Made by a program: the position numbers and the translations under genes. Under the pieces are notes generated by a model. That model did not search any database. It had not been told where the DNA came from and saw nothing but the letters and a program-made list of their open reading frames with translations. Positions 2,777-23,240 of a stretch of 26,727 nt of DNA are shown piece by piece. The number at the start of each line of letters is the position of its first letter. Positions within the stretch are counted from its first letter, which is position 1. Source of the DNA: a virus (lineage: Duplodnaviria; Heunggongvirae; Uroviricota; Caudoviricetes); the IMG/VR virus record IMGVR_UViG_2675903433_000037; one strand, 5' to 3'.

Positions 2777-6130
<3,354 letters not shown>

Positions 6131-8503: not shown

Positions 8504-8719
8504 TCATCGCTCCTTAAAGACGCCGTTTAACATGCCGATCGCCAGACTTAAATGAGTCGGTGTGAATCCCATTAGCGTTACCGTTTCGCGGTGCTTCTTC
8601 AGTACGCTACGGCAAATGTCATCGACGTTTTTATCCGGAAACTGCTGTCTGGCTTTTTTGATTTCAGAATTAGCCTGACGGGCAATGCTGCGAAGGGCGT
8701 TTTCCTGCTGAGGTGTCAT
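8504..8719 (-). CDS. Hypothetical protein orfX, 71 aa (copy A)
   Basis: [15 protein letters not shown]...GVFKER. The ATG overlaps the stop of a small upstream ORF (ATGA). The track ORF carries a 22-aa N-terminal extension that I reject. Confidence 0.5.
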   Translation of the reverse strand: MTPQQENALRSIARQANSEIKKARQQFPDKNVDDICRSVLKKHRETVTLMGFTPTHLSLAIGMLNGVFKER

Positions 8720-8799
8720 TGAACAAGTCCCATGTCGGCAAGCATAAGCACACAGAATATGAAGCCTGCTGCCAGAAAAATGCATTCTGTTGTTGTCAT
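8716..8799 (-). CDS. Small hydrophobic peptide, 27 aa (copy A)
   Basis: [31 protein letters not shown] overlaps at both ends, with orf63-like upstream and orfX downstream. Too short for the ORF track. Confidence 0.35.
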   Translation of the reverse strand: MTTTECIFLAAGFIFCVLMLADMGLVQ

Positions 8800-8987
8800 G
8801 CCGGGTCTCTCTCGTTTGCTTCTGCTTTCGCCGCCATCATTTCCAGCTTTTGTGAAAGGGATGTGGCTAACGTATGAAATTCTTCGTCTGTTTCTACTGG
8901 TATTGGCACAAACCTGACTCCAATTTGAGCGAGGCTATGTGCCATCCCGATACTCGTTCTTAATTCAACAGGAGATGCTTTGTGCAT
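8796..8987 (-). CDS. Lambda orf63-like protein, 63 aa (copy A)
   Basis: Position and sequence resemble recalled lambda orf63 between exo and ea22. Confidence 0.55.
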   Translation of the reverse strand: MHKASPVELRTSIGMAHSLAQIGVRFVPIPVETDEEFHTLATSLSQKLEMMAAKAEANERDPA

Positions 8988-9148
8988 ACAGCCCCTCGTT
9001 TATTATTTATCTCTTCAGCCAGCCGCTGTGCTTTCAGTGGATTTCGGATAACAGAAAGGCCGGGAAATACCCAGCCTCGCTTTGTAACGGAGTAGACGAA
9101 AGTGATCGTGCCTACCCGGATATTATCGTGAGGATGCTTCATTACCAT
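8960..9148 (-). CDS. Lambda orf60a-like protein, 62 aa (copy A)
   Basis: '[11 protein letters not shown]...' lies immediately downstream of exo, as recalled for lambda orf60a. Confidence 0.55.
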
Positions 9149-9522
9149 TGCTCCCCATATACAAAACCAATTTCAGCCAGTGCCTCGTCCATTTTTTCGA
9201 TGAACTCCGGCACCATCTCGTCAAAACTCGCCATGTACTTTTCATTCCGCTCAATCACGACATAATGCAGGCCTTCACGCTTCATGCGCGGGTCATAGTT
9301 GGCAAAGTACCAGGCATCTTTTCGTGTCACCCACATGCTGTACTGCACCTGGGCCATGTAAGCCGATTTTATTGCCTCGAAACCACCGAGCCGGAATTTC
9401 ATGAAATCCCGGGAGGTAAACGGGCATTTCAGTTCAAGGCCGTTGCCGTCACTGCATAAACCATCGGGAGAGCAGGCGGTGCGCATACTTTCGTCGCGAT
9501 AGATGATCGGGGATTCAGTAAA
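9142..9522 (-). pseudogene. exo: exo 3' fragment (C-terminal ~125 codons), truncated by the IS element
   Basis: Translation equals the C-terminal part of the full exo at 12642-13319. Homology ends at 9522 where IS sequence begins. Confidence 0.8.
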
Positions 9523-9586
9523 TGAGGTAGCCTGAGTTTAACGGACACTCCTTCCTGAAATAGAATGGCATCAGAAGGAGCTAATA

Positions 9587-9889
9587 ATGAGCAGAAAAAC
9601 CCAACGTTACTCTAAAGAGTTCAAAGCCGAAGCTGTCAGAACGGTTCTTGAAAATCAACTTTCGATCAGTGAAGGCGCTTCCCGATTATCTCTTCCTGAA
9701 GGCACTTTAGGACAATGGGTTACCGCCGCCAGAAAAGGGCTCGGTACTCCTGGTTCCCGCACGGTGGCTGAACTGGAATCTGAAATTCTGCAACTGCGTA
9801 AGGCGTTAAATGAAGCTCGCCTTGAGCGAGATATATTAAAAAAAGCAACAGCGTATTTTGCACAGGAGTCGCTGAAAAATACGCGTTAA
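9587..9889 (+). CDS. IS3-family transposase OrfA (HTH), 100 aa
   Basis: 'MSRKTQRYSKEFKAEAV...' with a leucine-zipper-like C-terminus; slippery aaaaaaag at about 9838-9845. Confidence 0.85.
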   Translation: MSRKTQRYSKEFKAEAVRTVLENQLSISEGASRLSLPEGTLGQWVTAARKGLGTPGSRTVAELESEILQLRKALNEARLERDILKKATAYFAQESLKNTR

Positions 9890-9924
9890 TCGAACAATGG
9901 CGACAACAATTTCCCATTGAAGCG

Positions 9925-10743
9925 ATGTGTCAGGTATTTGGTGTATCCAGGAGCGGTTATTACAACTGGGTACAGCATGAACCCTCAGACAGAAAACAAA
10001 GTGATGAGCGGCTAAAACTGGAGATTAAGGTGGCACATATCCGCACTCGCGAAACATATGGAACCCGGCGGCTCCAGACGGAGCTGGCAGAGAATGGCAT
10101 CATCGTTGGTCGTGACCGACTGGCACGTCTTCGTAAGGAGCTAAGGCTACGCTGTAAGCAGAAACGCAAGTTCAGAGCGACTACGAACTCGAACCACAAT
10201 CTGCCAGTTGCGCCAAATCTGCTGAACCAGACGTTCGCTCCTACAGCACCAAATCAGGTCTGGGTGGCGGACCTGACGTATGTTGCCACACAGGAGGGAT
10301 GGTTGTACCTCGCTGGCATCAAAGATGTTTATACGTGCGAAATTGTCGGCTACGCCATGGGAGAGCGCATGACAAAAGAGCTGACAGGTAAAGCTCTGTT
10401 TATGGCGCTCAGGAGCCAGCGCCCACCTGCCGGGCTAATCCACCACTCTGATCGAGGTTCACAGTACTGCGCATACGATTACCGGGTCATACAGGAGCAG
10501 TTTGGTCTGAAAACATCAATGTCGCGTAAAGGTAACTGTTACGACAACGCTCCGATGGAAAGCTTCTGGGGAACGCTGAAAAATGAGAGCCTGAGCCACT
10601 ATCGTTTTAATAACCGGGATGAAGCCATCTCAGTAATACGGGAATACATTGAGATTTTCTACAATCGTCAGCGTCGTCACTCTCGTCTGGGGAATATCTC
10701 CCCGGCAGCCTTCAGGGAAAAATATCATCAGATGGCTGCTTAA
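9925..10743 (+). CDS. IS3-family transposase OrfB (DDE integrase core)
   Basis: 'WVADLTYV...HHSDRGSQY...CYDNAPMESFW' DDE motifs. The native product is probably an OrfAB fusion by -1 frameshift, so the true 5' end lies upstream of this ATG. Confidence 0.85.
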   Translation: MCQVFGVSRSGYYNWVQHEPSDRKQSDERLKLEIKVAHIRTRETYGTRRLQTELAENGIIVGRDRLARLRKELRLRCKQKRKFRATTNSNHNLPVAPNLLNQTFAPTAPNQVWVADLTYVATQEGWLYLAGIKDVYTCEIVGYAMGERMTKELTGKALFMALRSQRPPAGLIHHSDRGSQYCAYDYRVIQEQFGLKTSMSRKGNCYDNAPMESFWGTLKNESLSHYRFNNRDEAISVIREYIEIFYNRQRRHSRLGNISPAAFREKYHQMAA

Positions 10744-10790
10744 AAAAAGAACAAATGGTAGTGTCCGCTATTGCCAGTACACCTCAGTTC

Positions 10791-10979
10791 TTAACTCAAC
10801 AGGAGATGCTTTGTGCATACAGCCCCTCGTTTATTATTTATCTCCTCAGCCAGCCGCTGGGCTTTCAGTGGATTTTGGATAACAGAAAGGCCGGGAAATA
10901 CCCAGCCTCGCTTTGTAACGGAGTAGAAGAAAGTGATCGTGCCTACGCGGATATTATCGTGAGGATGCTTCATCGCCAT
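10791..10979 (-). CDS. orf60a-like protein (copy B, divergent)
   Basis: Same family as 8960-9148 with several substitutions. Confidence 0.5.
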
Positions 10980-11650
10980 TGCTCCCCAAATACAAAACCA
11001 ATTTCAGCCAGTGCCTCGTCCATTTTTTCGATGAACTCCGGCACCATCTCGTCAAAACTCGCCATGTAATTTTCATCCCGCTCAACCACGACATAATGCA
11101 GGCCTTCACGCTTCATTCGTGGGTCATAGTTGGCAAAGTACCAGGCATCTTTTCGCGTCACCCACATGCTGTACTGCACCTGGGCCATGTAAGCCGACTT
11201 TATGGCCTCGAAACCACCGAGCCGGAATTTCATGAAATCCCGGGAGGTAAACGGGCATTTCAGCTCAAGGCCGTTGCCGTCACTGCATAAACCATCGGGA
11301 GAGCAGGCGGTGCGCATACTTTCGTCGCGATAGATGATCGGGGATTCAATAACATTTACGCCGGAAGTGAACTCAAACAGGGTTCTGGCGTCGTTCTCGT
11401 ACTGTTTTCCCCAGGCCAGCGCTTTAGCGTTAACTTCCGGAGCCACACCGGTGCAAACCTCAGCCAGCAGGGTGTGGAAGTAGGATATTTTCATGTCAGG
11501 CCACTTCTTTCCTGATCGGGGCTTTGCTATCACGTTGTGAACTTCTGAAGCGGTGATGACGCCGAGCCGTAATTTGTGCCATGCATCATCCCCCTGTTCG
11601 ACAGCTCTCACGTCGATCCCGGTACGCTGCAGGATAATGTCCGGTGTCAT
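10970..11650 (-). CDS. exo: Lambda-type exonuclease, 226 aa (copy B, divergent allele)
   Basis: Full-length ORF ending GEQWR like recalled lambda Exo; differs from copies A and C at several residues. Confidence 0.85.
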
Positions 11651-12219
11651 GCTGCCACCTTCTGCTCAGTGGCTTTCTGTTTCAGGAATCCAAGAGCTTT
11701 CACTGCTTCGGCCTGTGTCAGTTCTGACGATGCGCGAATGTCGCGGCGAAATATCTGGGAACAGAGCGGCAATAAGTCGTCATCCCATGTTTTATCCAGG
11801 GCGATCAGCAGAGTGTTAATCTCCTGCATGGTTTCATCGTTAACCGGAGTGATGTCGCGTTCTGGCTGACGTTCTGCAGTGTATGCAGTATTTTCGACAA
11901 TGCGCTCGGCTTCATCCTTGTCATAGATACCAGCAAATCCGAAGGCCAGACGGGCACACTGAATCATGGCTTTATGCCGTAACATCCGTTTGGGATGCGA
12001 CTGCCACGGATCCTTAAAGACGCCGTTTAACATGCCGATCGCCAGACTTAAATGAGTCGGTGTGAATCCCATTAGCGTTACCGTTTCGCGGTGCTTCTTC
12101 AGTACGCTACGGCAAATGTCATCGACGTTTTTATCCGGAAACTGCTGTCTGGCTTTTTTGATTTCAGAATTAGCCTGACGGGCAATGCTGCGAAGGGCGT
12201 TTTCCTGCTGAGGTGTCAT
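11647..12219 (-). CDS. Chimeric ORF: orfX N-terminal 69 aa fused in frame to the Bet C-terminal 119 aa
   Basis: Translation is MTPQQ...[15 protein letters not shown]...KVAA. The junction near 12005 joins bet-internal sequence to the orfX 3' end. Confidence 0.6.
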
Positions 12220-12299
12220 TGAACAAGTCCCATGTCGGCAAGCATAAGCACACAGAATATGAAGCCTGCTGCCAGAAAAATGCATTCTGTTGTTGTCAT
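12216..12299 (-). CDS. Small hydrophobic peptide, 27 aa (copy C)
   Basis: Identical to 8716-8799, offset by 3500 bp. Confidence 0.3.
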   Translation of the reverse strand: MTTTECIFLAAGFIFCVLMLADMGLVQ

Positions 12300-12487
12300 G
12301 CCGGGTCTCTCTCGTTTGCTTCTGCTTTCGCCGCCATCATTTCCAGCTTTTGTGAAAGGGATGTGGCTAACGTATGAAATTCTTCGTCTGTTTCTACTGG
12401 TATTGGCACAAACCTGACTCCAATTTGAGCGAGGCTATGTGCCATCCCGATACTCGTTCTTAATTCAACAGGAGATGCTTTGTGCAT
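12296..12487 (-). CDS. orf63-like protein (copy C)
   Basis: Identical to copy A. Confidence 0.55.
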   Translation of the reverse strand: MHKASPVELRTSIGMAHSLAQIGVRFVPIPVETDEEFHTLATSLSQKLEMMAAKAEANERDPA

Positions 12488-12648
12488 ACAGCCCCTCGTT
12501 TATTATTTATCTCTTCAGCCAGCCGCTGTGCTTTCAGTGGATTTCGGATAACAGAAAGGCCGGGAAATACCCAGCCTCGCTTTGTAACGGAGTAGACGAA
12601 AGTGATCGTGCCTACCCGGATATTATCGTGAGGATGCTTCATTACCAT
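12460..12648 (-). CDS. orf60a-like protein (copy C)
   Basis: Identical to copy A. Confidence 0.55.
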
Positions 12649-13319
12649 TGCTCCCCATATACAAAACCAATTTCAGCCAGTGCCTCGTCCATTTTTTCGA
12701 TGAACTCCGGCACCATCTCGTCAAAACTCGCCATGTACTTTTCATTCCGCTCAATCACGACATAATGCAGGCCTTCACGCTTCATGCGCGGGTCATAGTT
12801 GGCAAAGTACCAGGCATCTTTTCGTGTCACCCACATGCTGTACTGCACCTGGGCCATGTAAGCCGATTTTATGGCCTCGAAACCACCGAGCCGGAACTTC
12901 ATGAAATCCCGGGAGGTAAACGGGCATTTCAGCTCAAGGCCGTTGCCGTCACTGCATAAACCATCGGGAGAGCAGGCGGTGCGCATACTTTCGTCGCGAT
13001 AGATGATCGGGGATTCAGTAACATTCACGCCGGAAGTGAACTCAAAGAGGGTTCTGGCGTCGTTCTCGTACTGTTTTCCCCAGGCCAGAGCCTTAGCGTT
13101 AACTTCCGGAGCCACACCGGTGCAAACCTCAGCCAGCAGGGTGTGGAAGTAGGACATTTTCATGTCAGGCCACTTCTTTCCTGATCGGGGTTTTGCTATT
13201 ACGTTGTGAATTTCTGAAGCTGTGATGACGCCGAGCCGTAATTTGTGCCACGCATCATCTCCCTGTTCGACAGCTCTCACGTCGATCCCAGTACGCTGCA
13301 GGATAATGTCCGGTGTCAT
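12642..13319 (-). CDS. exo: Lambda exonuclease (Red-alpha), 225 aa
   Basis: Near-identical to recalled lambda Exo; ends GEQW-stop, one codon shorter than copy B. Overlaps the bet stop. Confidence 0.9.
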
Positions 13320-14101
13320 GCTGCCACCTTCTGTTCAGTGGCTTTTTGTTTCAGGAATCCAAGAGCTTTTACTGCTTCGGCCTGTGTCAGTTCTGACGAT
13401 GCACGAATGTCGCGGCGAAATATCTGGGAACAGAGCGGCAATAAGTCGTCATCCCATGTTTTATCCAGGGCGATCAGCAGAGTGTTAATTTCCTGCATGG
13501 TTTCATCGTTAACCGGAGTGATGTCGCGTTCCGGCTGACGTTCTGCAGTGTATGCGGTATTTTCGACAATGCGCTCGGCTTCATCCTTGTCATAGATACC
13601 AGCAAATCCGAAGGCGAGACGGGCACACTGAATCATGGCTTTATGACGTAACATCCGTTTGGGATGCGACTGCCACGGCCCCGTGATTTCTCTGCCTTCG
13701 CGGGTTTTGAATGGTTCGCGGCGGCATTCATCCATCCACTCGGTAACGCAGATCGGATGATTACGGTCCTTGCGGTAAATCCGGCATGTGCAGGATTCAT
13801 TGTCCTGCTCAAAGTCCATGCCATCAAACTGCTGGTTTTCGTTGATGATGCGGGACCAGCCATCAACGCCCACCACCGGAACGATGCCGTTCTGCTTATC
13901 AGGGAAGGCGTAAATTTCTTTCGTCCACGGATTAAGGCCGTACTGGTTGGCGACGATCAGCAATGCGATGAACTGCGCATCGCTGGCATCACCTTTAAAT
14001 GCCGTCTGGCGAAGAGTGGTGATCAGTTCCTGTGGGTCGACAGAATCCATGCCGACACGTTCAGCCAGCTTCCCAGCCAGCGTTGCGAGTGCTGTACTCA
14101 T
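13316..14101 (-). CDS. bet: Bet (Red-beta) single-strand annealing protein, 261 aa
   Basis: '[75 protein letters not shown]...' matches recalled lambda Bet. Confidence 0.95.
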
Positions 14102-16036: not shown

Positions 16037-16726
16037 TTATCCGTGTTTTCTGTACGTCTGCGGCATGCTCCCAATAACCTTACCGAATATGAATACCCGG
16101 TTCATCTCGTCTTTCTCGATAGGGTCCCACGGTGAGTAGCTCTTGTTATCAGAGATAACCAGCAGTTTATCCTTCATCATTTGCAGGCGCTTTACATGGG
16201 CGGTGTCGTCGTACAGAAATGCATAGATACCATCACCGTCGAAAGATTTAACCGTGATATCAACGAACAGCAGATCACCTGGTTCGATCGTTCCTGACAT
16301 GCTGTCACCACGCACGTTAATGATGCGGATATTTTCTGCCTTCCTACCATCGAACATGTGACGAGCATCGTCAAACGAGTACTCAACCGAGCGTAGAACT
16401 TCTACAAACTCACGGTTGATGACTCCCGGCCCAGCACTGACTTCTATATCAAGAACGTCAATCTTGAAGTATTTGGAATGGCTGACAGTTGATTGTATTG
16501 GTTGCACTGTACTGTCTGACATATTTCCAACGCCAGAAGATAACCATTCTGCGCGCACACCCAAAGCGTTCGCGATCTCCACGATTTTAGTTGTTTGATT
16601 AGCTTTCCCTGTTTCGATTTTCTGAATAGCAGCCTGGCTAACCCCGACCAAATCCCCAAGCGCCTTTTGTGTAAGGCCTCGCGCTAATCTGGCTTCTTTA
16701 AGTCTTTCTGAGAGTGTTGTTTTCAT
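16037..16726 (-). CDS. cI-type prophage repressor (N-terminal HTH plus S24 peptidase domain), 229 aa
   Basis: HTH 'LTQKALGDLVGVSQAAIQKIETG' and S24 signature 'VRGDSMSGTIEPGDLLFV' with a downstream Lys in 'HVKRLQ'. Start chosen at MKTTL; the track's upstream ATG at 16792 lies inside the operator. Confidence 0.85.
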   Translation of the reverse strand: MKTTLSERLKEARLARGLTQKALGDLVGVSQAAIQKIETGKANQTTKIVEIANALGVRAEWLSSGVGNMSDSTVQPIQSTVSHSKYFKIDVLDIEVSAGPGVINREFVEVLRSVEYSFDDARHMFDGRKAENIRIINVRGDSMSGTIEPGDLLFVDITVKSFDGDGIYAFLYDDTAHVKRLQMMKDKLLVISDNKSYSPWDPIEKDEMNRVFIFGKVIGSMPQTYRKHG

Positions 16727-16830
16727 AGTCCAAATGTACAACCAAGGTTTTATTCCATCAAACGAAAATGGTTGTTGACTAAAAACAACCATAGTTTTAA
16801 TCTTGATTCAAATTAACCACGGAGGTTGTT
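16727..16830. promoter_or_regulatory. Divergent PRM/PR-type promoter-operator region
   Basis: 104-bp spacer between the divergent cI-like and cro-like genes. Inverted repeat atggttgtt-N9-aacaaccat at about 16768-16795; the cro-like gene has a ggagg RBS. Confidence 0.6.
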
Positions 16831-17061
16831 ATGAACCCAGCTATCAAAACAGCGATCAATATCGTTGGTTCACAAAAGAAACTGGGCGCTGCCTGCGAAG
16901 TTTCACAGCAGGCCGTCTATAAGTGGCTTCACAACAAAGCAAAGGTATCCCCTGAACATGTCGGCAGCATTGTTACGGCTACTGGTGGAGTAGTGAAGGC
17001 ATACCAGATTCGCCCGGATCTTCCGAAGTTGTTTCCACACACCGAAAAGAACGCAGCTTAA
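16831..17061 (+). CDS. Cro/YdaS-like HTH regulator, 76 aa
   Basis: Small HTH protein ('AACEVSQQAVYKWL') transcribed divergently from the repressor. Confidence 0.75.
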   Translation: MNPAIKTAINIVGSQKKLGAACEVSQQAVYKWLHNKAKVSPEHVGSIVTATGGVVKAYQIRPDLPKLFPHTEKNAA

Positions 17062-17756: not shown

Positions 17757-18686
17757 ATGGCAAACACTGCTGAGATATTCAATTTTCCAGTGCCGGATGC
17801 GGCACAAAAGGAGCCGCGCGTGGCAGATCTCGATGATGGTTATACGCGCATTGCAAATGAGTTGCTGGAAGCTGTAATGCTGGCCGGATTAACACAGCAC
17901 CAGCTTCTGGTCTTCCTGGCTGTCATGCGCAAAACATATGGCTTTAATAAAAAACTGGACTGGGTGAGCAACGAGCAACTTTCCGAGTTGACCGGGATAT
18001 TGCCGCACAAGTGTTCTGCTGCAAAAAGTGTTCTGGTAAAGCGTGGGATTTTTATTCAGAGCGGGCGGAATATCGGCATTAATAATGTGGTCAGTGAATG
18101 GTCAACATTACCCGAATCAGGTAAGAAAAATAAAGTTTACCTGAAAGAGGTAAATTTACCTGAATCAGGTAAGAAAAGTTTACCCAAATCAGGTAAAGGC
18201 ACTTACCCGAATCAGGTAAACACAAAAGACAAACTAACAAAAGACAATATAAAACCTTATTCGTCCGAGAATTCTGGCGAATCCTCTGACCTGCCAGAAA
18301 ACGACCTTCCTGTGGTGAAAGCGGATGCTGCGATTCAGAGCGGCAGCAAGTGGGGGACAGCAGAAGACCTGACCGCCGCAGAGTGGATGTTTGACATGGT
18401 GAAGACCATCGCGCCATCAGCCAGAAAACCGAATTTTGCAGGGTGGGCTAACGATATCCGTCTGATGCGTGAACGTGATGGACGTAACCACCGCGACATG
18501 TGTGTACTGTTCCGCTGGGCCTGCCAGGACAACTTCTGGTCCGGTAACGTGCTGAGTCCGGCCAAACTCCGCGACAAGTGGACCCAGCTCGAAATCAACC
18601 GGAACAAGCAACAGGCTGGCGTGACAGTCGGCAAACCAAAACTCGACCTGACAAACACAGACTGGATTTACGGGGTGGATCTATGA
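17757..18686 (+). CDS. O: Replication initiator O-like protein, 309 aa
   Basis: N-terminus resembles lambda O ('ADLDDGY...RKTYG'); ori iterons lie inside the gene; stop overlaps the P start. The track ORF starts 90 nt upstream; ATG 17757 has a gggagga RBS. Confidence 0.85.
   Translation: MANTAEIFNFPVPDAAQKEPRVADLDDGYTRIANELLEAVMLAGLTQHQLLVFLAVMRKTYGFNKKLDWVSNEQLSELTGILPHKCSAAKSVLVKRGIFIQSGRNIGINNVVSEWSTLPESGKKNKVYLKEVNLPESGKKSLPKSGKGTYPNQVNTKDKLTKDNIKPYSSENSGESSDLPENDLPVVKADAAIQSGSKWGTAEDLTAAEWMFDMVKTIAPSARKPNFAGWANDIRLMRERDGRNHRDMCVLFRWACQDNFWSGNVLSPAKLRDKWTQLEINRNKQQAGVTVGKPKLDLTNTDWIYGVDL
18105..18270. repeat. Origin of replication: four to five palindromic ~18-bp iterons plus an AT-rich tract
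   Basis: Repeated tTACCcgAATCAGGTAAg units at about 18109, 18136 (degenerate), 18155, 18179 and 18201, followed by an A-rich stretch. Confidence 0.7.
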
Positions 18687-19384
18687 AAAACATCGCCGCA
18701 CAGATGATTAACTTTGACCGTGAGCAGATGCGTCGGATCGCCAACAACATGCCGGAACAGTACGACGAAAAGCCGCAGGTACAGCAGGTAGCGCAGATAA
18801 TCAACGGTGTATTCAGCCAGTTACTGGCAACTTTCCCGGCGAGCCTGGCTAATCGTGACCAGAACGAACTGAACGAAATCCGCCGCCAGTGGGTTCTGGC
18901 TTTCCGGGAAAACGGGATCACCACGATGGAACAGGTGAGCGCCGGAATGCGTGTTGCCCGTCGGCAGAATAGACCATTTCTGCCATCACCCGGGCAGTTT
19001 GTTGCATGGTGCCGGGAAGAAGCATCCGTTAACGCCGGGCTGCCAAACGTCAGCGAGCTGGTTGATATGGTTTACGAGTATTGCCGGAAGCGTGGCCTGT
19101 ATCCGGATGCAGAGTCTTATCCGTGGAAATCGAACGCGCATTACTGGTTGGTTACCAACCTGTACCAGAACATGCGGGCCAATGCGCTGACTGACGCGGA
19201 ATTACGGCGCAAGGCTGCCGATGAACTGACCTGTATGACAGCGCGAATTAACCGTGGTGAGACGATACCTGAACCAGTAAAACAACTTCCTGTTATGGGC
19301 GGTAGACCTCTAAATCGTGCACAGGCTCTGGCGAAGATCGCAGAAATCAAAGCTAAGTTTGGGCTGAAAGGAGCAAGTGTATGA
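18683..19384 (+). CDS. P: Replication protein P (DnaB helicase loader), 233 aa
   Basis: 'MKNIAAQMINFDREQMRRIANNMPEQYDEKPQVQQVAQIINGVFSQLLATFPASLANRDQNE...' is near-identical to recalled lambda P. Confidence 0.95.
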   Translation: MKNIAAQMINFDREQMRRIANNMPEQYDEKPQVQQVAQIINGVFSQLLATFPASLANRDQNELNEIRRQWVLAFRENGITTMEQVSAGMRVARRQNRPFLPSPGQFVAWCREEASVNAGLPNVSELVDMVYEYCRKRGLYPDAESYPWKSNAHYWLVTNLYQNMRANALTDAELRRKAADELTCMTARINRGETIPEPVKQLPVMGGRPLNRAQALAKIAEIKAKFGLKGASV

Positions 19385-19413
19385 CGGGCAAAGAAAGATT
19401 CTTCGTTACTTGA
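19381..19413 (+). pseudogene. ren: ren remnant: 10-codon ORF MTGKERFFVT-stop
   Basis: ATG overlaps the P stop (ATGA) as in lambda P/ren, and the first four codons match recalled lambda Ren (MTGKE). Confidence 0.45.
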
Positions 19414-19565
19414 AGAAATACAGTGTTTATTGTTCTTTTGAGATGTTGCGAAAACAGGAATTACCACGGTAAACATTTTGTAGCTGACCCATGCATTGAT
19501 GAAATATTGTGGGTATTTAATAGAGCATAATTATCAAGTTGCGTAAGATGTGGAGTAATGGTATG

Positions 19566-19590
19566 GGCGGTGTTAGCACCGCCTTTAATT
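19566..19590 (+). terminator. Hairpin terminator downstream of P
   Basis: ggcggtg-ttag-caccgcc followed by tttaatt. Confidence 0.5.
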
Positions 19591-19936
19591 AAAGCTCAGA
19601 AAGCTGTGATAATATTTTTTCTGGAGTGGTTTCGTTGGAAATGCTAAATAATACAGCACCTTTGACTGATTCATCTCTCATTTCAATTTCACATGAATTA
19701 TGGTTGTATGAGATTGCATAATTTTTTAATGTTCTTTCGCTTTGCCACCACACCATATTTGCAAGACTTCCGTTATACGTTCTTATCTCGATTGATCCGG
19801 GCAGGGCTTTCCAGATAACACCTCCTAGCAATGTAAGAGCGGCTGCACCAACATTTTTTGCATGATGGTTAGAACGTTCCATTACCCCTTCAGCATAACG
19901 ATGAAGAATCTCTATGTCAGTCGCTTTGATAGTCAT
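19589..19936 (-). CDS. Hypothetical protein, 115 aa, on the opposite strand to flanking genes
   Basis: ATG-initiated ORF opposing the rightward early operon, with AT-rich upstream DNA. No family recognised. Confidence 0.5.
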   Translation of the reverse strand: MTIKATDIEILHRYAEGVMERSNHHAKNVGAAALTLLGGVIWKALPGSIEIRTYNGSLANMVWWQSERTLKNYAISYNHNSCEIEMRDESVKGAVLFSISNETTPEKILSQLSEL

Positions 19937-20164
19937 GTTATTTCCATGTAATTGCTGTGTGAAACGTAGTGTTAGTTAGGTGTTAGCAGAATATAGCATC
20001 AAAGTCGAAACCGGTAGAAAAAATATTGGTGATTATTTCGCTGCATTTGGAACTGGAACAACAATGATTATTAGCATGATTGCTTTTTCCAGTCATAAGA
20101 ATGAGTCGTGTTAATTTTTTCTATTCAATAGGAAATTATCATGTCATCAGAATATGAACAACTA

Positions 20165-20257
20165 CGGTGACTTCTGCGCTAAACGGGGACGTTTATGCGC
20201 ACATACAATCCAAACTCTCTTCTCCCTCCACAGATGCAGAAATACACCTGCGATTTT
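20165..20257 (+). repeat. Direct repeat R1 (93 bp) carrying an RBS and the 5' end of a ylcH-like small ORF
   Basis: About 94% identical to 22487-22579. Contains ggggacgtttATGcgcacatacaat..., with the ATG at 20195 opening a 46-codon ORF. Confidence 0.8.
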
Positions 20258-20414
20258 TTGCATTCGGTGTTTTTGGCAGCCAAGAACAGGGAGTCTCTGT
20301 TTGTCTGGCGGCTAAAGGTGATATGGAAATCGTGATGTCTTAGCCTAAAGTAGTTGCAACAGTTGGAGCGATTATGGTGGTAGTAGTGATCATCGCGCCC
20401 CCCATATGCAAGGG

Positions 20415-20444
20415 TTGACGACATTATTTATCCGGCGCTATATT
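20415..20444 (+). promoter_or_regulatory. Sigma70-like promoter
   Basis: -35 TTGACG, 18-bp spacer, -10 TATATT. Confidence 0.45.
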
Positions 20445-20504
20445 CTGTGCGTTGCCGCAAAATCGGCACACGGGATTGGCGTCCCGGACATCAAAACGAC
20501 GCAT

Positions 20505-20527
20505 AACCGCGTTCGCGGTTTTTTTAT
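20505..20527 (+). terminator. Intrinsic terminator in the leader upstream of the Bro-N gene
   Basis: aaccgcg-tt-cgcggtt hairpin followed by ttttttt, about 60 nt downstream of the predicted promoter. Confidence 0.55.
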
Positions 20528-20688
20528 GCGCAGTGCACGTCTACACAAAAATTATGGTGGGCTGTGTGAGGGCTTCTTCGGAAGCGCCGGATTTCGTTTT
20601 GACCGGTTACGCCAACCTTGCACAGTCCACCACCAGTCGATTGGCGTCGTCGGTGGTGATAGCTCAAATTCAAAACGAGATTATCGCT

Positions 20689-21297
20689 ATGGTCACTCAG
20701 CTCGCATTCCGCGATGTAAAATTCACTCCTATAAATCACAACAACCAGATCTGGTTTACCAGCAAAGAATTGGCGGCAGCATTAAAATATGCCAGCACCA
20801 AAGCAGTAACCGACATCTACAACAAAAATATTGATGAGTTTACTGACGGAATGTCTCAGGTCGTCGAATCAACGACCTCAGGAAATTATCGTAAGAAGAC
20901 TCGCATTTTCTCCCTCCGTGGCGCCCATCTGATCGCCATGTTCGCCCGCACTCCTGTGGCCAAAGAATTCCGCCGCTGGGTGCTGGATATTCTCGATCGA
21001 GAAATTCAACAATCCCCAATCACAAAACAATTCACTGATAACGAACTTTGCACACTTGCTTGGTTATGGCGGGCAAGTGACACAATGTTAACCGCTTGCC
21101 AAAACGTCACTCCGCTTCTTCAGGTAGCAGAACACCGCGAAGCCGGTCGCTTCACTTCAATCGAACAAGAATATCCCCGGATACTCAATAAGGCACAGGC
21201 AATCCTTGCCAGAGAAACGGCACATGTAAAATTCCGGCCGTGGCAGGATGATAAGTGGAGTCGAGTATTGACGCATTTACGTTCTGAACGGCTGTAA
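20689..21297 (+). CDS. Bro-N domain antirepressor-like protein, 202 aa
   Basis: N-terminus 'FTPINHNNQIWFTSKELAAAL...RIFSLRGAHLIAMFARTPVAKEFRRWVLDIL' fits the Bro-N pattern. The track's 281-aa ORF would span the promoter and terminator. Confidence 0.65.
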   Translation: MVTQLAFRDVKFTPINHNNQIWFTSKELAAALKYASTKAVTDIYNKNIDEFTDGMSQVVESTTSGNYRKKTRIFSLRGAHLIAMFARTPVAKEFRRWVLDILDREIQQSPITKQFTDNELCTLAWLWRASDTMLTACQNVTPLLQVAEHREAGRFTSIEQEYPRILNKAQAILARETAHVKFRPWQDDKWSRVLTHLRSERL

Positions 21298-21596
21298 TAA
21301 AGTTGCGGGAGAGAAATGCCGCTAGTATTTTGTAATTAATTGAATGCTGACGGTTTAATGAGAAGTCAAGAACACTACTTGTACTATAATCGTTCGATGT
21401 TAGTGAGGGTTTGATGCAAAAAATGAAGTGATTGACCCTAAATTTGCGCGATCAGCGACAGATTGTACACCGAGATCCTGTGGGCTGGAATTTGCAGAGA
21501 AATACCGAAAATGATATCCAATATTGTTTTCAGTTCCTACATCATACCTGATAAGGGTATAATCATAAAAATTAGGATAATTCAAGTTATAATTGT

Positions 21597-22013
21597 ATGA
21601 ATAAAAACGACCTTGAAGCATTATCTGACACTAGGCTTAATGAGGCCAAATGCTTGCTTGATCATGGCTTTTTTCATGGTGCATATTATCTTTGTGGGTA
21701 TGCAGTTGAATGTGCATTGAAGGCCTGTATTGCCAAGTCATTTTTACAACATGAGTTTCCAAACAAAAAAGTCGTAAATGATTCATATACTCATGATTTG
21801 TCGCAACTTCTCAAAATTGCCAACTTACATCAAATTTTGATTGCTGACGCAAAAAATGATGTTTCGTTGGAGATTAACTGGTCGGTCGTTAAAGACTGGA
21901 GCGAGCAATTTAGATACGACAATAACATAAGTAAAGCTATGGCCGAACAATTGTTTGATGCTGTAGGTGACCAAAATTCTGGAGTTTTGAAATGGGTAAA
22001 AGCACACTGGTAA
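21597..22013 (+). CDS. HEPN-like domain protein, 138 aa
   Basis: 'AYYLCGYAVECALKACIAK', 'YTHDLSQLLKIA' and 'EQFRYDNN' resemble the PF05168-type HEPN helical signature. AT-rich gene. Confidence 0.6.
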   Translation: MNKNDLEALSDTRLNEAKCLLDHGFFHGAYYLCGYAVECALKACIAKSFLQHEFPNKKVVNDSYTHDLSQLLKIANLHQILIADAKNDVSLEINWSVVKDWSEQFRYDNNISKAMAEQLFDAVGDQNSGVLKWVKAHW

Positions 22014-22393
22014 TCGGCAGAGAGTTGACAAAAGATATGGAATTCTCAGGTCAATTTTTGTTAAAAAAACTCAAGTTACAGAATTTAACTATTGATGCTG
22101 CAATGTGGTTTTATTACCCAGATCTATCTTGGAGATATATTTTAGTTATCAGTGACTTCTCAGAACGTGGGCCGGCAGAAATATATAGAAAAATCAGTGA
22201 GATAAATAGAAATAGCATATCAAAAAAGTATAAGCCGATACCATTAGAAGCAATTGAGGCTAAGGGGGATTCAGCTTTTGTTTATAAAATGTTAAAAGGA
22301 TTTGCTAGAGTCAACGATGGTAAAGTTCGCGTTTCTAATTCTATGGTAAATGGTTTAGAAATCGTTGACTGTCTGATCTATGAGTTAAAATAA
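21992..22393 (+). CDS. Hypothetical 133-aa protein overlapping the HEPN-like gene by 22 nt
   Basis: ATG with a ggag RBS 7 nt upstream, inside the 3' end of the HEPN-like ORF. No nucleotidyltransferase motif seen. Confidence 0.5.
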   Translation: MGKSTLVIGRELTKDMEFSGQFLLKKLKLQNLTIDAAMWFYYPDLSWRYILVISDFSERGPAEIYRKISEINRNSISKKYKPIPLEAIEAKGDSAFVYKMLKGFARVNDGKVRVSNSMVNGLEIVDCLIYELK

Positions 22394-22486
22394 GAAATCT
22401 CTTGCTGGGTATCATTATTGTTTAAATGACTTTTGATTTTCAATAATCAACTTGTCATAATTAAGTCACCGGAGTTTGAACTCCTC

Positions 22487-22579
22487 CGGTGACTTCTGCG
22501 CTAAACGGGGACGTTTATGCGCACATACAATCTAAACTATCTTCTCCCGTCACAGATGCAGAAATGCACCTGCGATTTT
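22487..22579 (+). repeat. Direct repeat R2 (93 bp)
   Basis: Second copy of R1, preceded by a perfect 9-bp-stem hairpin (tcaccggag...ctccggtga). Confidence 0.8.
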
Positions 22580-22618
22580 CTTTATCCAGCGTTTGACCTC
22601 TGCGGAGGTGAAGCGTGA
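22517..22618 (+). CDS. ylcH: YlcH-like small protein, 33 aa
   Basis: gggga RBS; [21 protein letters not shown]...; stop overlaps the GTG start of ybcN. Confidence 0.45.
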
Positions 22619-23070
22619 ACCTCCCACAAGACGGCATCAAACTGCATCGCGGTAACTTCACCGCTATCGGTCAGCAGCTCCAGCCTTATTTGGAAGACGG
22701 CAAGTGCTTTCGCATGGTGCTTAAACCGTGGCGCGAGAGACACAGTCTTTCCCAGAATGCACTTAGCCACATGTGGTACAGCGAAATCAGTGAATACCTT
22801 ATCCGCAGGGGGAAATCGTTCGCTACCGCAGCATGGGTAAAAGATGCTCTCAAACACACATACCTCGGTTATGAAACCAAGGACCTGGTTGATGTCGTAA
22901 CCGGCGAAATCACTACTATCCAGTCGTTACGCCATACCTCCGATCTTGATACCGGAGAGATGTATGTCTTCCTGTGTAAGGTTGAAGCCTGGGCGATGAA
23001 TATTGGCTGCCACCTGACTATTCCGCAGAGCTGCGAGTTCCAGCTGCTGCGCGACAAGCAGGAGGCGTAA
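22615..23070 (+). CDS. ybcN: YbcN-like protein (DUF1367), 151 aa, GTG start
   Basis: Translation matches the recalled DLP12 YbcN sequence. Confidence 0.85.
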
Positions 23071-23240
23071 TGGCTACACCGCTTATTCGTGTCATGAACG
23101 GACACATCTACAGAGTACCAAATCGTCGTAAGCGTAAGCCTGAGCTAAAACCATCCGAAATACCAACACTGCTCGGATATACCGCCAGCCTGGTTGATAA
23201 AAAATGGTTGCGACTGGCAGCAAGGAGGAATCATGGCTGA
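23070..23240 (+). CDS. ninE: NinE-like protein, 56 aa
   Basis: '[56 protein letters not shown]'; TAATG overlap with ybcN. Too short for the ORF track. Confidence 0.7.
   Translation: MATPLIRVMNGHIYRVPNRRKRKPELKPSEIPTLLGYTASLVDKKWLRLAARRNHG

Follow-up and report, generated by a model that had tools for sequence, protein, structure and literature searches.

The accessory DNA between the replication gene P and the nin genes of a lambdoid prophage probably consists of two cargo slots that are exchanged by homologous recombination at a duplicated leader of the nin operon. The prophage is represented by a viral stretch of 26,727 nucleotides (Caudoviricetes; IMG/VR record IMGVR_UViG_2675903433_000037; hereafter designated the window), in which a first-pass annotation, made from the letters alone, had described two 93-bp repeats around about 2.2 kb of cargo and proposed that the cargo was swapped into the ren/nin region by recombination within a small gene. 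The repeats were confirmed at 20165–20257 and 22487–22579, lying in direct orientation on the plus strand with an offset of 2,322 bp and matching at 88 of 93 positions (94.6%). The proposed swap is likewise supported, by a hybrid empty site found in other genomes and by the varied cargo of relatives. The two variable slots are split by a conserved antirepressor module, and each slot ends at a leader copy of about 150 bp; the right copy would be the working leader of ylcH-ybcN, and the left copy an old duplicate fronting a small hydrophobic open reading frame (ORF) and the isrK-C4-ant genes.

The duplicated ylcH leader and its repeat-to-repeat junction

The elements of the duplication are as follows.

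20165–20210, plus strand: 46-bp block identical in both copies (equal to 22487–22532), the crossover interval of the filled and empty forms
20111–20263, plus strand: left leader copy (R_L), delimited by repeat comparison, covariance model, minimum-free-energy fold and terminator scan
22433–22585, plus strand: right leader copy (R_R), delimited by repeat comparison, covariance model, terminator scan, fold and covariation
22517–22618, plus strand: ylcH (orf33 of phage 82), a 33-aa leader ORF, from the ORF list, RefSeq and the phage 82 record
20195–20335, plus strand: ylcH′, a chimeric 46-codon ORF and decaying pseudogene, marked partial in RefSeq and broken in other alleles

Weaker homology extends about 55 bp upstream of the 93-bp repeats, to about 20111 and 22433 (162 nt at 81% identity), and the strongly conserved stretch of the duplication runs from a −35-like hexamer through the U-run after the third of the predicted hairpins (HP1–HP3). 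Thus, R_R comprises a TTGATT-17-CATAAT site (22433–22461), HP1 (22464–22494), HP2 (22497–22523), HP3 (22549–22576) and a U-tract (22577–22585). In R_L of the window itself, the −35/−10 hexamers (TTAATT at 20111–20116 and AATTAT at 20134–20139) and HP1 (20142–20172) are degraded, followed by HP2 (20175–20201), the ylcH′ start at 20195 and HP3 (20227–20254) with a T-run behind it. A covariance model of the leader, built from relatives and scanned against the 26.7-kb window, scored 89.5 bits at 22458–22530 (E = 7e-27) and 76.7 bits at 20136–20208 (E = 1e-22), and the third-best score was only 10.9 bits. The window thus holds exactly two copies, which are not a matter of chance because the next match scores so low.

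Each repeat contains, as had been read from the letters, a ribosome-binding site (GGGGA), an ATG and 21 codons of ylcH in common. The right ORF is the expected 33-aa ylcH, coupled to ybcN by the overlap of its stop with the ybcN GTG start, and ylcH is intact at 31–33 aa in nearly all right copies. The left ORF was also recovered at its full 46 codons, and RefSeq annotates it as a C-terminally truncated pseudogene. We rejected it as a real gene: the frame is kept in two diverged alleles, and others have stops, a frameshift or a lost ATG. Indeed, the R_L reading frame is often broken among alleles, while HP1 and HP2 largely persist.

The product of repeat-to-repeat recombination that the first-pass annotation had envisaged exists in nature. 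When finished assemblies were searched with a synthetic repeat-to-repeat deletion junction as the query, Escherichia coli NJS001 and STEC799 matched it end to end. Both carry P, the same Vch_cass14 gene as the window, one hybrid repeat and then ybcN, and their ylcH protein is that of the right copy of the window. A contiguous tract of 1,216 bp is 100% identical to window positions 19094–20210 joined to 22533–22631, and the switch from left-copy to right-copy single-nucleotide polymorphisms falls inside the 46-bp block; beyond the tract, the sequences are diverged on both sides, by about 7% in the nin genes. Because the flanks are 100% identical and the junction lies in the 46-bp block, the filled form is longer than the empty one by exactly 2,322 bp. 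Moreover, variant sites are common to left and right copies across genomes, and a single slot-1 flank is found with three different 3′ halves of the repeat, showing that exchange at the repeat has happened repeatedly.

Since a perfect match of 46 bp (93 bp at 95%) is kept, recombination would delete, insert or exchange the intervening DNA, the partners being either R_L with R_R or one of the copies with the leader of another phage. The prophage encodes a YqaJ-like exonuclease and RecT genes, and either these or host RecA could catalyse the exchange; enzymes of the YqaJ/RecT type are known from recombineering to recombine homologies of 35–50 bp. The acting enzyme, the direction of the recent event (loss or gain) and the function of the cargo are matters of inference. 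The pair of forms provides a base-pair-resolved natural case of accessory gene gain or loss in a lambdoid phage, in which a 46-bp perfect match in a duplicated leader suffices.

Layouts among relatives and alternative origins

The repeat occurs in 2,756 of 5,426 complete E. coli genomes, at 3,124 places and with a median of one per genome. Most relatives appear to have the single ylcH-ybcN junction that had been anticipated, accompanied by different cargo or none, with one copy directly before ybcN in most sampled loci, such as those of K-12, phage 82 and lambda-like phages. About 308 E. coli genomes hold the sequence 3′ of the left repeat, where homology begins at the repeat edge in nearly all, and the two-repeat layout was found with other cargo in approximately 300 genomes and several inducible phages (e.g., PhiR26_1 and IdasGreatGrand). 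All sampled two-repeat loci share the order P-(ren)-slot 1-left repeat-isrK/C4/ant-slot 2-right repeat-ybcN. Slot 1 contains Vch_cass14, PD-lambda-1/SNIPE or other genes, and slot 2 contains the pair of genes with a HEPN-domain member seen in the window, a 169-aa protein, a theta-like gene with others, or the insertion sequence (IS) IS421.

Slot 1, the ant allele and slot 2 assort independently (loci L002, L007–L012, L040, L066 and L132). Thus, in L009 and L011 the same slot 1 is accompanied by other alleles of ant and other slot-2 cargo, in L040 and L132 the same HEPN pair goes with another slot 1 and another ant leader, and in L066 the pair stands before a divergent leader without the ant module. 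Judging from this independent assortment, the stretch between the repeats, first described as one island, is a composite of a conserved antirepressor module and one variable slot. The repeat is not a regulatory element scattered at unrelated positions, an alternative that had been raised at the outset: among 120 viral contigs and 100 model-scanned loci it appears in two contexts only, before ybcN or before the antirepressor leader. Nor were relatives seen that carry the same 2.2 kb without repeats; in the few that have the antirepressor module but lack R_L, homology begins at the isrK promoter, in one case adjoining an IS481 remnant. Two leader copies, a few kb apart, are also present in the divergent viral contigs L113 (around 6873 and 10975) and L041 (around 1337 and 3744; locus coordinates of the leader-bearing strand), and the layout is therefore not restricted to E. 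coli alleles; in one of these two contigs, the ybcN-proximal copy starts with GTG and belongs to another HP2 class.

The left repeat/antirepressor junction is common to alleles that are 78–93% identical, and because it is so old, the original insertion predates the recent event. Such a shared junction would fit an ancient tandem duplication encompassing the entire ylcH region, whose copies then diverged where they lay and no longer exchanged sequence, the single-copy relatives never having had the island; so would the faint similarity that in certain left copies (L009, for example) reaches past the repeat. We nevertheless regard this history as improbable. The repeats are 89–97% alike, whereas the adjacent module alleles are 78–93% alike; variant sites are common to both repeat positions; and the empty form is a perfect left/right hybrid, matching the window without a difference on either side of its junction.

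Still less credit is due to an origin of the island as a transposon, an integron-type cassette or another unit mobilised by a site-specific recombinase, in which case the repeats would be its target duplication or its attachment sites. The slot-1 gene does belong to the Vch_cass14 family, first described in integron cassettes, and some relatives have the serine recombinase gene ybcK or IS elements in the same region. However, no terminal inverted repeats pair the island ends and none of the island ORFs tested matches a transposase or integrase family in Pfam, and we rejected a transposon or integron origin on these two grounds. In addition, the repeats consist of 93–150 bp of conserved leader and not of a short duplication, the crossover lies in the longest identical stretch as homology-driven exchange predicts, and ybcK is absent from the region in the window.

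Several points weigh against the exchange of two slots by homologous recombination at the leader. Only 2 of the 181 genomes with the Vch_cass14 left flank are empty. The evidence consists of finished assemblies, so that ongoing excision in lysogens lies beyond it, and the filled/empty pair fits loss or gain. Since the same junction is found in alleles of 78–93% identity, the founding event needs a duplication or an illegitimate join, which homologous recombination does not explain. Finally, the hairpins of R_L are kept while its ORF decays, and the copy could have been kept for a function rather than only for exchange.

The function that R_L could serve is that of a promoter-to-terminator cassette, driving or gating the hydrophobic ORF and shielding the antirepressor module from read-through, with two operons under the same leader. 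This reading is compatible with slot exchange, differing in why R_L persists, and we give it limited credence. The duplicated segment extends from the −35-like hexamer to the U-tract past HP3, the homology to R_R dropping just beyond; left copies in other alleles keep HP1 by compensatory or wobble changes, together with HP2, where the ylcH′ frame is lost; and the left repeat co-occurs with the hydrophobic ORF region in every sampled two-repeat locus. On the other hand, the degraded −35/−10 hexamers and HP1 of R_L and a nonsense codon in the hydrophobic ORF indicate that no function is selected in the window, and polymorphisms shared with right copies can explain the conservation of left copies through repeated exchange.

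Exchange of slots at the leader resembles the mosaicism long discussed for lambdoid phages. The modular theory of Susskind and Botstein is said to hold that modules are exchanged via conserved junction sequences ('linker/boundary'), and mosaic exchange at conserved junctions has reportedly been seen in the comparative genomics of HK97, HK022 and HK620. As in that mosaicism, accessory genes lie between conserved blocks (ren-nin), short edge sequences serve as crossovers, and relatives occur in all combinations. Unlike the usual mosaic junctions, the junction here is present twice per genome as a direct repeat, comes with an exact filled/empty pair and is a structured leader instead of an anonymous linker. 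Because the junction sequence is present twice, loss within one genome is possible, besides exchange between phages. Of the components, exchange at conserved junctions is long known and the cargo RNAs and antirepressor belong to known families, while the HEPN pair and the ylcH leader are uncharacterised.

The slots also recall the variable anti-phage 'hotspots' of P2-like phages and P4-like satellites (PMC9122126, PMC9519451). In both cases, fixed positions between conserved genes receive many alternative small cargo sets, and the relatives of the window include the validated defence gene PD-lambda-1. The present case differs in that the phage is lambdoid and its two neighbouring slots are delimited by repeats of a single leader, and in that the cargo of the window is known from sequence alone. 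Because relatives carry PD-lambda-1 in one of them, the two slots between P/ren and ybcN offer a place to prospect for defence or toxin genes.

The ylcH leader as a putative structured RNA

The repeat is a conserved, putative structured regulatory leader and not merely the 5′ end of a gene. Alignment of 94 distinct copies revealed a conserved TTGATT-17-CATAAT site that overlaps a TTGATT/AATCAA palindrome. HP1 has a near-invariant CCUGAACA loop, and its stem varies in sequence among phages yet pairs; the loop of HP2 is the GGGGAC ribosome-binding site, and its 3′ arm contains the ylcH start codon. For HP1 and HP2, in 44–48 distinct sequences, 89–93% of alignment cells pair, as against 29–43% when the partners are slid by 1–3 columns, and the covariation of 0.38 (no more than 0.12 for slid partners) was reached by 0 of 500 shuffles. 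In the MAFFT alignment, the inner HP1 pairs and one HP2 class are out of register; a model-based realignment corrects this but is biased towards the structure.

HP3 lies within ylcH and consists of a stem with a GAAA tetraloop followed by a U-run; a consensus terminator scan matched 22557–22574 in R_R and 20235–20252 in R_L. Because most sequences had been picked by a pattern inside HP3, the conservation of its nucleotides among viral contigs is not evidence for it. Extra leaders were therefore considered that had been fetched via YbcN protein similarity, and in this set the leaders of Siccibacter, Klebsiella and Phytobacter retain HP3 by two-sided changes or by a new UUCG-loop stem, while the peptide differs. 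A further hairpin, HP4 (22589–22615), is predicted by folding to cover the ribosome-binding site and GTG start of ybcN.

The model detects the leader before YbcN homologues of Escherichia, Enterobacter, Citrobacter, Huaxiibacter, Siccibacter, Phytobacter and Klebsiella and does not detect it before those of Pantoea or Rosenbergiella. A scan of 22400–22660 against Rfam 15 gave zero matches up to E = 10. In the 1996 record of phage 82, a putative promoter and a 'possible regulator-binding site' are marked where the leader lies, and a literature search on ylcH and on ylcH with ybcN found no relevant functional work. As a partner of the conserved HP1 loop, a single minus-strand 8-mer at 16958, inside the cro-like gene, came up and was treated as chance.

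Phage lambda has the tR2 terminator between P/ren and ninB, and leader-peptide attenuators are a familiar means of control. Like these, the ylcH leader has a predicted hairpin and U-run between the replication genes and a NinB-like gene, inside a short leader ORF, and, as in attenuators, further predicted hairpins cover the ribosome-binding sites of both genes, ylcH and ybcN. It matches no described RNA family in Rfam. Tentatively, and with more doubt than confidence, the leader may be regarded as an undescribed lambdoid cis-regulatory RNA that gates transcription and translation into the nin/Q operon, its duplicate gating a second operon and doubling as the recombination handle for the two slots. 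The parts of such a gate would be a conserved promoter/operator-like site and a 5′ hairpin with an invariant CCUGAACA loop, then a hairpin that sequesters the start codon of the leader ORF together with its ribosome-binding site, the ORF itself with a tetraloop terminator inside it, and a last hairpin over the ribosome-binding site of ybcN; the second gated operon would be the small membrane peptide with IsrK-C4-Ant. With four hairpins, strong covariation and a place before NinB-like genes in at least seven enterobacterial genera, the ylcH leader is the by-product of this analysis most worth following up.

Cargo, antirepressor module and prophage context

The remaining features of the variable region are as follows.

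19381–19413, plus strand: ren stub (MTGKERFFVT, then stop), the left edge of slot 1, from alignment to the ren-bearing relatives L002 and L012
19589–19936, minus strand: slot-1 cargo, a 115-aa protein of the Vch_cass14 family (Pfam PF18315, E = 5.7e-20)
20323–20418, plus strand: small hydrophobic ORF (MEIVMS-stop-PKVVATVGAIMVVVVIIAPPICKG) between R_L and the isrK promoter
20415–20444, plus strand: isrK promoter-like site TTGACG-18-TATATT, from a consensus scan; the homology of relatives without R_L begins here
20453–20525, plus strand: IsrK small RNA with intrinsic terminator (Rfam RF01394, full-length, 64.1 bits against a gathering threshold of 50; terminator scan, 20505–20520)
20550–20637, plus strand: C4-type antisense RNA, equivalent to the orf45′/STnc1160 region of Gifsy-1 (Rfam RF01695, 82.5 bits against a gathering threshold of 45)
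20689–21297, plus strand: antirepressor (Bro-N and P22_AR_C) by Pfam and by PHROG anti-repressor families
21597–22013, plus strand: first gene of slot 2, a 138-aa HEPN-domain protein (Pfam PF05168, 27.8 bits against 22; phrog_5737)
21992–22393, plus strand: second gene of slot 2, encoding a 133-aa partner, with a 22-nt overlap with the HEPN gene and a predicted protein fold remotely like minimal nucleotidyltransferases (MNT)
22615–23070, plus strand: ybcN (NinB-like), first gene of the conserved nin block, from the RefSeq annotation of an identical locus

The region 3′ of R_L had been described as a promoter-terminator leader followed by a Bro-N antirepressor-like gene. The leader can now be named as IsrK followed by a C4 antisense RNA, and the gene product has the Pfam domains Bro-N and P22_AR_C. 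The antirepressor starts 164 nt 3′ of IsrK, and the frame equivalent to orf45 is fused in frame to ant, as the ant frame extends upstream without a stop from an ATG at 20546 (orf45-ant fusion type). From this stopless frame (20546–21297), a longer Ant of 249 aa, starting inside the C4-type RNA, is possible. The C4 loop at 20590–20602 can form 13 consecutive pairs (one G·U) with 20670–20682, located 7 nt 5′ of the ant ATG. By analogy with the Gifsy-1 homologue, the C4-type RNA probably keeps the antirepressor silent by pairing with the translation start of ant, and the switch-on would come through IsrK.

In Gifsy-1, transcription that continues past isrK from its promoter produces an isrK-orf45-anrP mRNA that is not translated by itself, its translation being activated in trans by the short IsrK; an orf45 frame running into ant without a stop is a variant reported for S. 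dysenteriae (PMC4825925). The Gifsy-1 module shares with the window an IsrK with its own promoter and terminator, the C4-type RNA region and the antirepressor (PMC4825925). It stands after a Q-like gene, while the module of the window stands between P and the nin genes; orf45 and the antirepressor overlap there by an AUGA stop/start, whereas the frames of the window are fused with no stop. In about 300 E. coli genomes, unlike in Gifsy-1, a copy of the ylcH leader and the small hydrophobic ORF precede the module. The immI region of phages P1 and P7 is c4-icd-ant. In comparison, the C4 loop of the window is complementary to the translation start of the antirepressor, but icd is missing: the ORF list has no separate ORF between C4 and ant, just the in-frame extension of ant. 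A Gifsy-1-type antirepressor switch is thus itself shuffled; it occurs in some 300 E. coli genomes, O157, O26 and O103 strains among them, in which such antirepressors could affect the induction of co-resident prophages.

The small hydrophobic ORF is broken in the window and its near-identical relatives by a change of codon 7 from TGG to TAG (20341–20343), and its TGA stop sits within the isrK −35 hexamer. In other alleles it is intact at 29–31 aa, in frame over a 6-nt indel, and the 29-aa allele matches phrog_4612 (E = 1.7e-16). In the DLP12-type loci L003 (2501–2813) and L004 (2472–2638), with the arrangement emrE-ybcK, only a 3′ remnant of the antirepressor remains, directly past the ybcK recombinase gene; the sequence suggests that the module was formerly present in these prophages and truncated later.

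The slot-2 genes had been taken as a HEPN-like pair; the 138-aa protein passes the Pfam HEPN threshold, and the 133-aa partner, which belongs to a narrow family with no annotation, has no Pfam match. In searches of PADLOC, NCBIfam and PDB sequences, the HEPN protein had a weak PDC-M28A match only, and the partner had none. The HEPN protein is devoid of the Rx4-6H motif, with no histidine 4–6 residues past R13 or R106, and the pair appears to lack a conserved nucleotidyltransferase acidic motif. The arrangement is like that of HEPN-MNT systems in joining a HEPN protein to an overlapping small partner, with a predicted fold closest to MNT, as a mobile cassette in several prophage genera; the pair differs in the absence of the Rx4-6H motif and, apparently, of the acidic motif. 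It occupies the same slot, with the same overlap, in Klebsiella lambdoid prophages (L139–L141), and in Acinetobacter prophages (L135–L138) it adjoins lysis genes and an integrase, not the nin region, with the exact 22-nt overlap kept. Because it recurs across genera with the same overlap, the pair behaves as a mobile two-gene cassette. Its features taken together, it is probably a toxin-antitoxin or defence-type accessory cassette. In L135–L141, the pair lies at locus positions 3606–4405 or equivalent.

The window belongs to a lambdoid prophage of the phage-82/DLP12 type, with the gene order S24-type repressor (16037–16792), cro-like gene, YdaT-domain gene, O, P and the variable region, followed on the 3′ side by ybcN-ninE-ybcO-rusA-ylcG-quuD and then a porin gene. 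Positions 19380–23100 are 100% identical to E. coli E2865, and the arrangement is common to 176 complete genomes, including O157:H7, O26 and O103 strains. The reduction of ren to a 10-codon stub was borne out, with the ATG at 19381 and the homology to full ren stopping past codon 5. The Vch_cass14 flank is present in 181 E. coli genomes, each at 99% identity or above; the Vch_cass14 gene is the only slot-1 cargo in the window, and its family is named for Vibrio integron cassettes.

The recombination module is itself repeated, at 8511–14101 of the window, where its genes are on the minus strand. A segment of at least 300 nt is present in three copies (from 8956, 10787 and 12456) that are 96–100% identical, along with two identical copies that start from 8511 and 12011. 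Covered by these repeats are three YqaJ-like exonuclease genes, of which one is partial, and two RecT genes, of which one is again partial. Inside the O gene, at 18108–18224 (plus strand), are four to five direct repeats of about 22 nt (TTACCCGAATCAGGTAAG...) with internal dyad symmetry, a cluster that has the look of the origin iterons of a lambda-type O gene.

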